Shown in pieces: positions 43,453-63,476 of a DNA stretch of 64,000 bases. The translations under genes and the position numbers were made by a program. How positions within the stretch are numbered: the stretch's first letter is position 1; the number at the start of each line of letters is the position of its first letter. The stretch is from the NCBI RefSeq assembly GCF_036321535.1, contig NC_087436.1, forward strand, positions 60,762,001 to 60,826,000, written 5' to 3'. The stretch is from Camelus dromedarius (Eukaryota). A model generated the notes under the pieces. The model was not told the DNA's origin and searched no databases. It saw only the letters and a list, made by a program, of their open reading frames with translations.

Positions 43453-44326
43453 AATTGTATGTTATATAAAGCATGATTGATTTTGTTACATTATTGGTGG
43501 GGGGGGTACTTCAGAACTTGTTCCTTGGTATGTAGAGTTGGATGTTAAATAAGTAAAGGAAAAAACATTCTAAAATTCACAGAGCTGAGCAGTATTATGT
43601 CAAAATATACTATACTTCCAATTGCTCCAATTATTAGCAAGTTTTTATTTTTAGTTACTCCCAATTAAATTAGTTAAGACAGTAAATAATAGCATATTTG
43701 TAGCAAGTGTTTCAAAGTTAATGAGAATTATTAAAGACAATTTTTATCACATGCCTTCCCCACAAAGCCAGGAGATTAATAACTAAATAGGGATGTTACC
43801 CACAGCTTGGCTGCCAGGAAGAATTATATGAACTAATTAACAAAAGACCTTGGAGGAAAGTGGTCTCATTTACAATCTTGATAAAAAGGAGGGGAGAAAA
43901 CATACCACAAAGGAAAAGATAAACAGATGATTCTGTGAACTCTCCTTTCTTTATAATACAATATATCATAACTAAAATAAAAAGCAAAAGCTAATAAAAC
44001 AGTATCAGGAAAAGACATGAAATTGAAAAGAAACATATAAGAAAAAATTAGTGAACAAATAAATGAAAAAATAAAAGAAATTGGAAATTAAAATTTTGAA
44101 AACGTGTTATACCTAATAAGTGTGCAAAATAAAAATAAGGTAATATCTATGCTGGTAACGTATATATGTAAATGGATAAATATTGTAGAAATCATTTTTA
44201 GTATGTAGTCCAAAAATTATGTAGACAGTAGTATTCTTTGTATAGTAATCTCATCTGCATCAGATTTTCCTAAGAATTATCTAAAGGAAAGAATATCTAT
44301 ACTTATTGCAAAATTACTTATGTTAG

Positions 44327-44794
44327 TGTGAATGAAAAGTACTGCAACCATATCAGTAAACAAAGAATGCTGAAACCATCAAGTCATCAGCGGCTGCTGC
44401 CACGCCCCAGTGAAGACAAGCCTGCAGCCCAGCCTCTGCAGCCACTCACAAACGGTGCACTCTGAAGGCCCTCAGAATAATAAAGGACAGGATACTGGCC
44501 CTAGATAGCTAGGTGCTTGTCAGGAATGAACTCAATGAGTCCAAATGTTTGCTCCCTCTCGTACATAGAAAAGCACTAAATTCTTTAACTTGAGATGTCT
44601 AGTTTTCTTTAGATAATGAGTATTCTTTTATTGTTCCAACTACCTGGTCTTTGTTGTAAAGCTCCTATATATCCTAGACCCTCCCCTACCTCTTCAGAGC
44701 AGTCCCTCAGAGGGACTGTCATCCCAGCTCAAGTCCTCCTGCCAAACGAAACATAACTCTCATCTTTTAGGCTCTGCATTTATTTCAGTCGACA
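44327..44794 (+). mobile_element. ERV1-like solo LTR (family A, copy 1)
   Basis: Termini TGTGAATG...GTCGACA with flanks ttag/gtag and a TATA-like ctatatat at ~44665. An inverted copy lies at 46279-46757. Confidence 0.92.
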
Positions 44795-45366
44795 GTAGCA
44801 AAAAAGACTAGATATTTAGCAACAGGAAATGAGTAGTTAAATTTTGATCTATTGATTTGATGGAATAGTATTGGGCAACAACTAAAATGTTATTTGTGAG
44901 GATTCTGTAGCAACATACCATAAATGCTAAGTGTAAATAGCTATCGAAAAACTACACAGCTGTAGCGAACAGAGAGAAATGTAGAAAAAGAAAAAATTTG
45001 GGGGTGGAAATATTGCTCATTCTGAATCTAATTTTTATCCACGTATTTTTATCACTTATTTGAGGAGAAAGATAATACAGTGGAAGACTGCTCAGACTTC
45101 TACTGGAATTCAATCATTTCAAGATAGTCAAATATAAGCTCTTCTAGTTAAACCTGCATTACAATTTATTTCAGAAACAATATCCTTCAGTTATATATGT
45201 GCTGTGACATTACACTCAACAAAATACTTGATCAGGGCTATCAATTCAGGTATAGGAGATTTCACAGGATGTTTCACTGAACTAACTGATGTTTTGGATT
45301 CTAGAATGAGGACTGAGGTCTGGTGCAGGTGGAGGACACCAGAAAAGGCAATACAGACAGAACCAG

Positions 45367-45856
45367 TGTGAAGGAAAAGCCAGGCTGGGCCAACAAGATA
45401 ACTCACAAGTCTAAGAATGTGAAAGAAAAGCAGGGCTGGGCCAATAAGATAACTCACAAATCTAAGTATCAGAATACTGATCTGAGTTCTGCTGGACTAA
45501 CTCGTAAATCTAAGTTAATTAGTGTTGGTTTGCTGATTCCCTGTTCATGTTGTTTTTATTGTTGTTGTTTTTTGCTAGGCAGCTGGATTTTCAAAGAGAT
45601 ATATCTGGCTTTGGAATGTTGGTTTGCTGCCTCCCTGCCTCCACTTTTGTGATAATGATGCTGCTAAAGCTGTTTCATGACTATTGGCCGAATACCCCAA
45701 GCTTGTACTTAACCCTATAAAGCCACATGCACAAGTCTTGGAGGTGCTCAGAGCTTCGGAGCAGAAGCCCCTCTGAGCCCACCGGCATACTACATCTGAG
45801 TACTCCAACCCTCCGAGTGGTGCTTGTTTCTTGGCTGGCCTGTCATTTCCGTAACA
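45367..45856 (+). mobile_element. ERV1-like solo LTR (family B, copy 1)
   Basis: Termini TGTGAAGG...GTAACA with a perfect 4-bp TSD ccag and TATA ctataaa at ~45715. Homologous to 48930-49392 and 50629-51073. Confidence 0.92.
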
Positions 45857-46278
45857 CCAGAACTGTTCTAATTAGAAATCATCTCAGGGTGCTTAGAGAA
45901 GAGAAAGTGAAACAGACATCAGAGCTCTCCTCTATATCCTTTATAATTTTATCCTGCATAATATCCTTTATAATTTTACTTGTATGAGTATGTGTAAAAA
46001 TTGCTGCAGGAAATTCATTACAATGCCAGCTCAGTCTGCCTGTACAAATCCTTCGGTTGCTTTTGAAAAAGCCCAAGTTAGTGATTTGTCTCTAGATATT
46101 ATACATAAATATCCAAACCAAGTATTAGATCAGGGGTCAAAAGCTCAAGGCCTGGGGGGCTAAAACTGGCTTACAGATGAATGTTTGGGTGGACACATTT
46201 TGGACAAAAGTTTGAATTGGAATGCCGTATGGTGGAGCCAGCAGTCTGGACCAATTCAAGCATTCTTGTCATTTGCCT

Positions 46279-46757
46279 TGTCGACTGAAGTAAATGCACA
46301 ACCTAGAAGTTGAGAGTTACGTTTCGTTTGGCGGGGGGACTCAAGCAGGGATGACAGCCTCTGAGATCCCGCTGAGGGACTGCTCTGAAGAGGTAGGGGA
46401 GGGTCTAGGATATATAGGAGCTTTACAACAAAGACCAGGTAGTTGGAACAATAAAAGAATATTCATTATCTTAAGAAAACTAGACATCTCAAGTTAAAGA
46501 ATTTAGTGCTTTTCTATGTACGAGAGGGAGCAAACATTTGGACTCATTGAGTTCATTCCTTTGACAAGCACCTAGCTATCTAGGGCCAGTATCCTGTCCT
46601 TTATTATTCTGAGGGCCTTCAGAGTGCACCGTTTGTGAGTGGCTGCAGAGGCTGGGCTGCAGGCTTGTCTTCACTGGGGCGTGGCAGCAGCCGCTGATGA
46701 CTTGATGGTTTCAGCATTCTTTGTTTACTGATATGGTTGCAGTATTTTTCATTCACA
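46279..46757 (-). mobile_element. ERV1-like solo LTR (family A, copy 2, inverted)
   Basis: Reverse complement of 44327-44794, with a perfect 4-bp TSD gcct on both sides. Confidence 0.92.
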
Positions 46758-47236
46758 GCCTGGATCCCAGAGCCATTCAAGCTGACACATTTGACACCTA
46801 TATGAGAAACAGATTTTTGGACTCAGAACTAGTGGGAAAATGAATGTATTCTAAACAGTCTTGTGAATAGGCCCCAGCTCAACTTTCCCTTCAAGGCCTG
46901 GGGCTGTGGCTACTGGGTTTGATTTCCTCAAAGCAATGTGGTTGCCGAGGTTGGGGAAGTTGTATGACCTCGCCCCTGCCCTTTGTTCTCTTAGCCCAAG
47001 GTGCTGAGACAGTTTGCAGCTGTTGTCTTGGGATCAAACCATCAGTGCAAGGTTGGAATTTGTCAGCCTTTGGTAAGTTGAAAAAGCCACTGGGAGGCCC
47101 TTATCTTCTTTCTCTGCCTCCTGCGGAGAGAAGCAGCTCTCAGCAACCCTTAATTGACTATTATGCAATAATATTCAAACGTGATGATGTTGGCATATAG
47201 TGAGAATCCCTATTTAAAAGAAAAACACAATGATTG

Positions 47237-47860
47237 TGAGACAGGAAGGGGGCAGCGCACAGCCTTTCAAGGAATGCCACAGCAATTAACATCAAAATGG
47301 TGAAAGATTCATCCCCCAGTAGGCCTTGAGGCTCAGGATGATGAGAGATTTAACTTCTAGCAGATCTTGAGCTTCATTATATGCTCACTGTAATATATTA
47401 ACATGGTGAATAACACGCCCCCAGGCACCATGGCTGTCCCAAGGCTAGCCACAAAATGTCAAAGAGTGGGAAATGGCCAACTTCCTGGAAATCCCAGCCC
47501 CTTCCCCAGGCTACTTAGACTGGTCCTTCCACTTGTTAGCATATGAAGCCACCAAGTCCGTAAAAACCAGCAACATGGAGCCTCTCGGCCTCCCCTCTCT
47601 CTCTGTCTTCGGAGATGGCCCACATTCTGTCTATGGAGTGTGTACCTACTTTTAAACTGAGCACCCAACCCCCACATCTCGTGGCCTTTCTCTTGCCTTT
47701 CAATGCATCTCTCTGAATAAATCTACCTCTCAACTGGTTTGCTCTTGAATTCTTTCCTGCACGAAGTCAAGGACCCACACTTGGCGGGTCACAACCCAGG
47801 GGCTCAGCCAAGACCTGGGACACAGCCCTCCTCATGCCCCACATTTGTTTTCCTGCATCA
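47237..47860 (+). mobile_element. ERV1 solo LTR, MER41-like (family D)
   Basis: Termini TGAGACAGG...CCTGCATCA with a perfect 4-bp TSD attg. AATAAA at 47716-47721 is followed by U5 ctcttgaattctttcctgcacgaagtcaaggaccc. The MER41 assignment is from recall. Confidence 0.88.
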
Positions 47861-48929: not shown

Positions 48930-49392
48930 TGTTATGGAAACGACAGGCCAATCAAGAAACAAGCACCACTCGGAGGGTTGGAGTACTCACATGTATTACG
49001 GTGGCGGGCTCAGAGGGGCTTCTGCTCCGAAGCTCTGAGCACCTTCGGACGTGCGCATGAGTTTTTATAGGGTAAAGTACAAGCTTGGGGTATTAGGCCA
49101 ATAGGCATGGAACAGCTTTAGCATCATTATCATCACAAAAGTGGAGGTGGGGAGGCAGCAAACCAACATTCCAAAGCCAGATATGTATCTTTGAAAACCC
49201 AGCTGGCTAGCAAAAAACATGAACAGCAAACCAACACTAATTAACCTAGATTTACAAGTTAGTCTAGCAGAACTCAGATCAGTATTCCAATACTTAGATT
49301 TGTGAGTTATCTTGTTAGCCTAGCCCAGCCTCTCCTTCACATTCCTAGACTTATGAGTTATCTTGTTAGATCAGCCGGGTCTTTCCTTCACA
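48930..49392 (-). mobile_element. ERV1-like solo LTR (family B, copy 2, inverted)
   Basis: Reverse-complement homologue of 45367-45856 (tgttatggaaac...ccttcaca). The TSD is imperfect (tggt left, ggta right). Confidence 0.9.
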
Positions 49393-50628: not shown

Positions 50629-51073
50629 TGTGAAGGAAAAGCTGGGCTGGGCCAGCAAGATAACTCACAAGTCTAAGAATGCAGGCTAACAAGATAACTC
50701 ACAAATCTAAGTATCGGAATACTGATCTGAGTTCTGCTGGACTAACTCATAAATCTAAGTTAGTGTTGGTTTGCTGTTCATGTTTTTTTTGCTAGCCAGC
50801 TGGATTTTCAAAGAGATATATCTGGCTTTGGAATGTTGGTTTGCTGCCTCCCTGCCTCCACTTTTGTGATAATGATGCTGCTAAAGCTGTTCCATGCCTA
50901 TTGGCCGAATACCCCAAGCTTGTACTTTACCCTGTAAAACCTCATGCGCACATCTTGGAGGTGCTCAGAGCTTCGGAGCAGAAGCCCCTCTGAGCCCACC
51001 AGCGTAATACATGTGAGTACTCCAACCCTTCAAGTGGTGCTTGTTTCTTGGCTGGCCTGTCATTTCCATAACA
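50629..51073 (+). mobile_element. ERV1-like solo LTR (family B, copy 3)
   Basis: Termini TGTGAAGG...ATAACA with a perfect 4-bp TSD ggat. Confidence 0.92.
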
Positions 51074-53609: not shown

Positions 53610-54149
53610 GTTTTTACATTCTAATTTAGAGCTGTGTAAAGCAGAGATATATTTTCACCCTCCTTTTTAAATTAAAATCTTAATTATTTCAAACTTTTTT
53701 TAAAATGCCAGATGTGAATCTTCGTGCTATTAGTCTTCTCTTTACTTATTAAGTGATTTAGCTTCAGTGGGTACCATTTACCATTTAACTACTGCAGATA
53801 CCAGCTGAAGATGAATTGCTCTCAAACTCAGTGCAGCAATTTTGGAAGACATTTTCCAAAGTGTACTTGACTTTATTTCTTTACACTTGTATGCATTTTG
53901 CTACAAGTTCATCCTAGAAGGTCCATCAGGAAGTTATGTTGCTTAAAATCAAATATTCCAGAGAGAGATTATTGAGACTTTCCACCATCAAACGAGTCGT
54001 TATTAATATCTTCCTTAGGGGCCATTCTTCAAGGTACAAGAAGAGATTTTTGTTTCCTATTGTGGATAAAACAAATTGAGATATTGATTTGGTGCCCTTA
54101 TTTGCACTGACACCAGGAAACTCAGATCTGAAAATGAGGCCCATCCTTA

Positions 54150-54980
54150 ATAATTTTAAAAATGAAAGATAACAAGTGTTGGCAAGGTTGTGGAGGAAAG
54201 GAACACTGTGCACTTTTATAAGGAAGGTAAATTGGTACAGTCATTATTGAATACAGTATAGAGGTTCCTCAAAATATTAAAAGTAGAACTACCATATGAT
54301 CCAGAAACCCCACTTCTGAATATATATCCCAAGGAATTGAAATTGGGATATCCAAGAGATGCCTGCACTCTCATGTTCATTGAAGCATTATTGACAATAG
54401 CCAAGATATATAAACAATCTAAATGTCCATCAAGGGATGAATGAATCAAGAAAATGTAGTATATATATATACAGCAGAATATTATTCAGCCATAAAAAAG
54501 AAGGAAATCCTGTCATTTGTGATAACATGGATAGACTTAGACAGCATGCTAAGTGCAACAAGCCAGGTATAAAAAGACAAATACTACATGATCTTACTCA
54601 AATGTGGAATCTAAAATTGTCAAACACATAGAAACAGGGTAGAGTGATAGTTGCCAGGATCTGGGAGGAGGAGAAATGGGAAGGTGTTGGACAAAGAATA
54701 CAGTTTCAGTTATACAAGATAAATAAGTTCTAGAGATCTACCTTACAGCATGGCACCTAGAGCTACCAATACTACATTGAACACATAAAATTTTTTTAAA
54801 GTGTAGATCGTATACACTGTTCTTACCACAAAAAATAACAAAAATAAAAATTATAATAAAGTAATAATAATAATAATGAGGGTAGGAGGAAGCTTTACAA
54901 GGTGATGGATATATCTATGACCTTGATGGTGGAGATGGTTTCATGGTTGTATACTTAACCTCAAACTCATTGAGTTGTGT
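54150..54980 (+). mobile_element. 5'-truncated LINE-1 (L1MA-type) 3' region
   Basis: gataacaagtgttggcaagg...gaactaccatatgatccag...aataagttctagagatcta...ggtgatggatatatctatgaccttgat. Confidence 0.9.
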
Positions 54981-62803: not shown

Positions 62804-63476
62804 TGTTATGGACTGAAGATTTGTGACCTGCCCCCTGCCCCAACGTGATAGCATTAAAAGTTAGGGCTTTGGACAAAATGTCAAAGAGTGGGAAATGGTC
62901 AACTTCCTGGGAATCCTAACCCCTTCCCCAGGTAGCTAGACTGGTCATTCCACTTATTAGCATATAAAGCTACCAAGCTCATAAAAACTGGCAACATGGC
63001 TCTTCACAGCCACCTCTTGCTCCCTCCTCTTCGGAGACTGCCTGCACTCTGTCTATGGAGTGTGTATCTACTTGAACCTGAGCACCCATCCGCCATCCCT
63101 CGTGGACTTTCTCTTGCCTTCTGAAACAGCCTACACTCTATGCAGTATGTATCTCTCTAAATAAATCTGCCTTTACTCAGAAAAAAAAAAAAAAAGGGCT
63201 TTGGGAAGTTAATTAGGCATGAAGGTAGAGCCCTCATAGATGGGATTAGTACCTTTAGAAGAGACTCAGGCTAGCTCTCCTGATCTCTTGCTTCTGTGTG
63301 AGGAGACAAGAAGTCAGCTGTCTGCAGCCTGCAATAGGGCTCTCACCAGAACCCGACTATGCCGGCACTCTGATGTCAGATTAACAGCTTCCAGAACTCT
63401 GAGAAATAAATTCCTGTGGTTTATAGGCCACCCAATTCATGGTACTTTGTTACAGCAGCCAAAACTGACTAAAACG
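62804..63476 (+). mobile_element. MaLR LTR MLT1A-like, nested in L1 and itself interrupted
   Basis: tgttatggactgaa...gggctttgg|gaagttaattagg...gatgggattagt...ctcaccagaacccgac...ccagaactctgagaaataaatt...cagcagccaaaactgactaa. Confidence 0.88.
62873..63194 (+). mobile_element. L1-retrotransposed (processed) copy of an ERV LTR U3-R, same family as 47237-47860
   Basis: Aligns to ~47451-47735. AATAAA at 63160-63165 is followed 15 nt later by an A-run. U5 is absent. The 10-bp TSD agggctttgg lies at 62863-62872 and 63195-63204. Confidence 0.9.

Follow-up and report, generated by a model that had tools for sequence, protein, structure and literature searches.

Two LTRs that face each other tail to tail with 1484 bp between them, here called arm A and arm B, were very probably made alike over most of their length by local non-crossover gene conversion, long after they had been inserted independently as members of an ERV1-type family and reduced to solo LTRs. 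They lie in a 64-kb stretch of AT-rich mammalian DNA, the whole of which we call the window, in which L1 fragments occur and solo LTRs are clustered at 44-51 kb.

Two insertions and a step in identity

Both arms have TG..CA ends and a 4-bp TSD, A has a TATA-like box and the family has a high copy number, the features by which solo LTRs are recognized. The 4-bp TSD we take to be the mark of ERV1, and on that basis A and B are classed as ERV1-type. Among 209 stop-free frames of at least 62 aa, a set that misses shorter exons, no Pfam match, and so no sign of internal retroviral sequence, was found above the cut-off. Because each arm has its own TSD and exact LTR ends, A and B represent two integrations, and because the TSDs are not swapped between the arms, there has been no net crossover; the arms were inserted independently and their flanks have not been exchanged. 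The first-pass annotation of this DNA had described two LTRs of one family facing each other 1484 bp apart, each with its own TSD and with no net inversion of the spacer, and we reproduced the coordinates, the spacer and the TSDs, the last in ancestral order (Table 1). Homology between the arms is restricted to the two LTRs, and blastn found no third copy of their family within the 64-kb window. The exact ends at the LTR termini and the differing TSDs led us to reject an origin of either arm as a local copy of its neighbour.

Table 1. Features of the facing LTR pair and of a second LTR family in the window.
Feature	Position	Strand	Remarks
Solo LTR, left arm A	44327..44794	+	468 bp, TG..CA
Solo LTR, right arm B	46279..46757	-	479 bp, TG..CA
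TSD of A	outer TTAG 44323..44326; inner GTAG 44795-44798	+	one mismatch (3/4 letters match)
TSD of B	inner GCCT 46275..46278; outer GCCT 46758-46761	+	
Spacer between A and B	44795..46278	.	1484 bp, uninverted; contains the unrelated solo LTR 45367-45856
Homogenized outer part of A, mostly U3	44327..44710	+	99.2% identical to B
Homogenized outer part of B	46372..46757	-	from alignment and letters common with A
Diverged inner part of A, R-U5	44711..44794	+	9 bp missing near 44715
Diverged inner part of B, R-U5	46279..46371	-	final 35 bp in single-copy contig
TATA-like box of A	44666..44671	+	LTR position 340
Adjacent pairs common to both arms	46403-46404, 46464-46465, 46614-46615, 46325-46326		
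Two adjacent rare letters in the diverged part of both arms	46325-46326; in A 44747-44748	-	98-99% of depth differs
Second-family solo LTRs	45367-45856 (+), 48930-49392 (-), 50629-51073 (+)		51-bp internal repeat

Global alignment of 44327-44794 (+) against 46279-46757 (-) gave 468 ungapped columns with 15 substitutions, 3 of them in the outer 384 columns (at 44339/46745, 44610/46472 and 44620/46462) and 12 in the inner 84 (Fisher p = 1.6e-7). The outer part also holds a 2-bp indel near 44521/46561 and the inner part a 9-bp indel, the 9 bp missing from A near 44715 being present both in B and in a distant relative described below (L002). The best change point fell at column 384 and was attained by 0 of 5000 permutations, the JC distance was 0.008 for the outer part vs 0.158 for the inner part, and the longest run identical between A and B measured 182 bp. 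As is characteristic of gene conversion, a contiguous tract is much more identical than the remaining homology between the arms. The counts that the annotation had made by eye proved accurate: 3 substitutions and one 2-bp indel in the outer 384 bp were exact by global alignment, the identical run had been put at ~180 bp, and the ~12 substitutions and 9-bp indel given for the inner ~85 bp were recovered over 84 columns.

A second family of solo LTRs in the window served as a control. Its TSDs read CCAG/CCAG and GGAT/GGAT, with that of the middle LTR exact only over GGT, and its members are 5.4-10.8% apart, with a longest identical run of 95 bp and no homogenized tract (uncorrected p values for a change point, 0.32, 0.18 and 0.024). 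One pair of this family is likewise inverted, 1236 bp apart, and unhomogenized, so closeness and inversion do not guarantee conversion.

Six LTRs lie within 44.3-51.1 kb, and a third high-copy LTR-like element, at about 47236-47860 and with a depth of about 1e5, starts 480 bp to the right of B. A partial LTR of this third family at 62873-63193, 83% identical to 47451-47699, ends at an AATAAA that is followed by an A run about 20 bases on; it has the appearance of an LTR transcript whose 3' end was retroposed by the L1 machinery. Self-comparison of the window returned L1 and LTR repeats and no repeated SINE family, which fits a SINE-poor genome. The stretch 53780-54240 (-) resembles decayed coding sequence with no Pfam match, and the gene-like frame 53929-54138 (-) within it had no homologue among longer proteins. 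Rfam gave 0 matches in the window, and Pfam matched 1 of the 209 stop-free frames, below the cut-off and judged to be chance; no host gene was found by this search.

Letters rare in the family and common to both arms

Contigs from 4 of 24 public runs, in all four cases contigs and not reads, were aligned at 80% likeness to 45870-47440, which contains arm B only. Depth in the unique flanks was 18-29 in run X1 and 7.5-8 in run X12, and it rose across the LTR to about 250,000 and 67,000, respectively. LTR depth so far above flank depth indicates a family of thousands of copies, although contig depth is not equal to copy number; the LTR depth of runs X15 and X16 likewise derives from the whole family, and the small word shares of X16-X20 were not counted as evidence. 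Two DNA runs from different studies showed 0 differences from the window over 45870-46313 and 46729-47295 and thereby confirm, for B, 5 of the 12 letters in the inner part as well as the letter at 46745. From these difference-free flank contigs, both runs appear to come from the window's species. In each of them a contig from the spacer reaches 35 bp into B (to 46313). Contig words being 31 letters long, this contig should have stopped 30 bp in, had a second insertion carried the inner end of B; the single-copy contig therefore indicates that no other insertion carries it. Compared with B, the longest contigs assembled from other copies show 17-37 differing letters over about 165-220 (about 8-17%).

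The wider family extends beyond this genome, since a second metagenome scan recovered two loci, L001 and L002, nearly one locus and 66-69% identical to the arms, from host sequence within two publicly available metagenome assemblies (L001:677-853 and L002:677-1023). Exact-pattern scans of viral contigs, genome contigs and a first metagenome set gave no match to the LTR. The polarity of changes was read from L002 only, a noisy outgroup at 68% identity.

Letter counts come from 40 of 117 rows, those listed; 34 of these lie in B, where 3 rows below 50% were excluded and 31 have another letter as the majority in both DNA runs. Among the rows listed, A has the non-majority letter of B at 19/21 outer sites and at 3/10 inner sites, where it has the majority letter at 5/10 and a third letter or a gap at 2/10 (Fisher p = 0.0013, outer vs inner). 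Thirteen of the 19 common outer letters listed differ from at least 90% of the aligned depth in both DNA runs. The outer likeness of the arms therefore reflects changes absent from most of the family, the signature of arm-to-arm copying, and the 19 of 21 rare outer letters common to the arms among the rows listed support the first-pass proposal of such conversion. At these 19 sites L002 goes with the majority at 10, where the letter of the arms is thus derived, and with the arms at 5, which weigh against the conversion reading; 4 are unresolved. Four outer CpGs are common to the arms, two of which (46521 and 46680) were created by non-majority letters. At 46551, 46459, 46614 and 46325 the residual depth for the letter of the arms corresponds to about 3-13 single copies, and at several sites to about 5-15 among hundreds to thousands, figures that understate carriers because contigs lose rare variants and minor paths, and about half of the LTR words were apparently lost.

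Some of these letters do not fit a single simple event. The 22 common non-majority sites listed include four adjacent pairs, more than expected by chance (p about 0.011), and such pairs resemble changes diagnostic of a lineage more than mutations of the host. One of them, 46325-46326, falls in the unconverted part, so one simple tract does not explain all of the data. It sits inside a 12-bp identical run flanked by two CpG transitions, probably at the position of the poly(A) signal, and hints at an earlier exchange, a patchy last tract or a rare common lineage. As to the residual outer differences, B departs from the majority at 46462 and 46472, the outgroup makes the 2-bp gap a loss in A, and the difference at 46745 was probably derived in A, since the first 30 bases of B are common to other family copies; together the four give no direction of transfer.

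Proposed history and competing explanations

In the history that we propose, two members of a very abundant ERV1-type LTR family integrated independently, 1.5 kb apart and in opposite orientation, as their ends and TSDs show, and both elements would have been reduced to solo LTRs. Each arm would then have collected private mutations, until one of them suffered a break or a stalled fork and was repaired, perhaps by fold-back in cis or from the sister chromatid, with the neighbour as template. About 355-385 bp may have been copied without crossover, leaving the flanks unmoved, and copying may have stopped between LTR positions 355 and 385, near the 9-bp deletion of A, which is a plausible barrier. 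The four remaining differences, two on A and two on B, would have arisen since or been left over. The outcome was most likely neutral. With the alternative substitution rate of 2.2e-9/year, the last exchange in the outer part dates to 1.8 My (0.4-5.2) and the separation of the inner parts to 36 My. A rate of 5e-9/year, equal to 2.5e-8 per 5-year generation in the excerpted text of a camelid study (PMC8605555), presupposes a camelid genome and gives 0.8 My (95% 0.2-2.3) and 16 My (8-28), respectively; conversion last acted roughly 1-2 million years ago.

The number of exchanges bears on how well this history agrees with published conversion. According to excerpts of two papers, conversion between TE copies is raised at distances below about 10 kb (PMC8230782, PMC6598467), and the first of these places the optimum at 89-100% identity (PMC8230782). 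A single event would have joined copies about 85% identical, below that optimum, which counts against it, whereas recurrent exchange needs no 380-bp tract between copies 85% alike. More than one exchange probably took place: we give roughly even chances to one long recent tract combined with an earlier or patch-like event, and see recurrent homogenization of the outer part as a possibility of somewhat lower standing.

The site at which the tract ends admits more than one cause. The predicted transcription start of A, placed by the +30 rule from the TATA box, is at about 44696 (LTR position about 370), inside the tract-end interval of 355-385, and the 9-bp deletion at LTR position 389 adjoins that interval. 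It is possible that the end was set by the deletion or by the transcription start, and either cause fits; large indels disturb pairing and end concerted evolution, as stated in part of one paper (PMC3924837). The predicted U3/R border falls in this interval too; a recombinant retrovirus would switch there, and this counts against conversion. A bolder reading, in which the arms were kept identical for more than 10 million years by repeated conversion acting only upstream of the transcription starts, strikes us as improbable. If true, exchange would be confined to U3 while the transcribed R-U5 escaped. The pair would then amount to a small self-maintaining palindrome with two convergent promoters, transcription rather than the 9-bp deletion would set its edge, and other inverted LTR pairs would have edges of this kind at the U3/R border as well.

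The coincidence of the step at LTR 355-385 with a start predicted near 370 is what would be expected if A and B were recent insertions of a young recombinant lineage, with one U3 source and with R-U5 taken from different templates at strand transfer. The adjacent-letter pairs and the common inner pair also suggest rare shared ancestry, and LTR bursts at 0.5-4 My are described for 2 of 4 camelid genomes in excerpts of PMC8605555. We nevertheless hold this lineage, together with a variant in which an unlinked copy later replaced one of the inner parts, to be quite unlikely; neither needs exchange between the neighbours. The inner 35 bp of B are single-copy in both DNA runs, no long near-identical second copy occurs among the 8 pieces listed per run, the rarest common letters are found in about 5-15 copy-equivalents, and the probability that 2 of 10-20 copies fall within 2 kb of each other by chance is about 1e-4 to 4e-4. 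Moreover, the TSD of A is mismatched and each inner part has private changes. The first-pass annotation had itself named such a subfamily as the case that would overturn its reading; we tested for it and did not find it, the inner end of B being single-copy and the longest contigs of other copies about 8-17% off.

It had also named an assembly or polishing artefact, in which reads of one arm overwrote the outer part of the other. None of the contigs listed crosses the middle of either arm, and arm-specific confirmation, from a check of assembled contigs on the B stretch, extends to the two ends of B. Collapse, however, predicts identity and not four differences with two derived on each arm; polishing would be unlikely to shift reads between copies 14% apart among thousands equally distant; and contigs with 0 differences span both junctions of B in two studies. 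Overall, an artefact is a very slim prospect. The spacer might alternatively have flipped and flipped back through crossovers between the arms that left conversion tracts, for inverted 384-bp arms of 99% identity are a crossover substrate and TSDs are blind to even flip numbers. Such toggling requires at least two crossovers plus conversion; the TSDs are in ancestral order, and contigs cannot show the orientation of the spacer across the arms. We regard it as highly improbable, and return to non-crossover conversion as the best explanation.

RNA pairing and comparison with known systems

The annotation had suggested that a read-through transcript could fold into a ~385-bp dsRNA. RNA folding did pair 384 outer positions on the plus strand and 381 on the minus strand with no shuffle control, a result that follows trivially from identity and is not counted as functional evidence. 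An RNA initiated within A could pair over no more than the diverged inner 99 bases (90 pairs predicted). Since an RNA started in an LTR is without the homogenized part of that arm, the suggestion is weakened: the ~385-bp dsRNA requires a transcript initiated beyond the two arms. In run X15, which is RNA by conjecture only, locus-specific contigs cover 45983-46283 in the spacer and 46961-47203 in the right flank, and X16 has a depth of 1-4 at about 46877-47088 in the right flank; both are strandless and may be DNA.

Conversion between neighbouring repeats has precedents. Neighbouring Alu copies less than 10 kb apart share non-diagnostic mutations (Aleshin and Zhi 2010, as relayed in excerpts of PMC8230782 and PMC6598467). 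As far as those excerpts go, that case and ours are alike in nearby copies and neutral homogenization, whereas A and B are a single inverted LTR pair in a camelid-like genome, with one long, sharp-ended tract. Ectopic conversion of human LTRs, a solo LTR included, favours linked donors, and the tracts in the excerpted data, which frequently had many donors, measure 3-86 bp at minimum and 14-450 bp at maximum, with a mean maximum of 99 bp (Trombetta et al. 2016, PMC4921805). Set against these excerpts, the present pair is similar in its solo-LTR acceptor and dissimilar in its tract of about 355-385 bp from one neighbour. Between the two LTRs of one camelid provirus, 1-10 kb from each other, conversion is a common event according to the portion of the study available (PMC8605555; 1,765-1,908 elements per genome); there, the LTRs are direct repeats of one insertion, while A and B are inverted, independent solo LTRs.

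The annotation had further likened the pair to palindromes. The arms of palindromes are duplicated kilobase-to-megabase segments from one duplication; those of A and B are 0.4 kb long and come from separate integrations, and the long duplicated arms of sex-chromosome palindromes were not found here. The comparison thus holds as a likeness only, the pair being two independent insertions and not a duplicated palindrome; to judge from part of one paper, inverted arms are homogenized with the spacer unmoved in both (PMC8600007). Inverted Alu pairs, which are sources of dsRNA, resemble A and B as short-distance inverted repeats able to pair in RNA or single-stranded DNA, and the identity of A and B over 384 bp is much above theirs. 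Such Alu pairs are unstable structures in the excerpts of PMC3215922.

Our literature search, with subscription journals mostly outside its reach, returned no report in which independent solo LTRs in inverted orientation had undergone conversion, nor any that dealt with the present locus; as best explained, the pair is a new example of a known process. It would offer a clean, datable conversion between old TE copies, one that would mislead LTR dating about 20-fold and that leaves behind a near-perfect 384-bp inverted repeat, of a class expected to be unstable.
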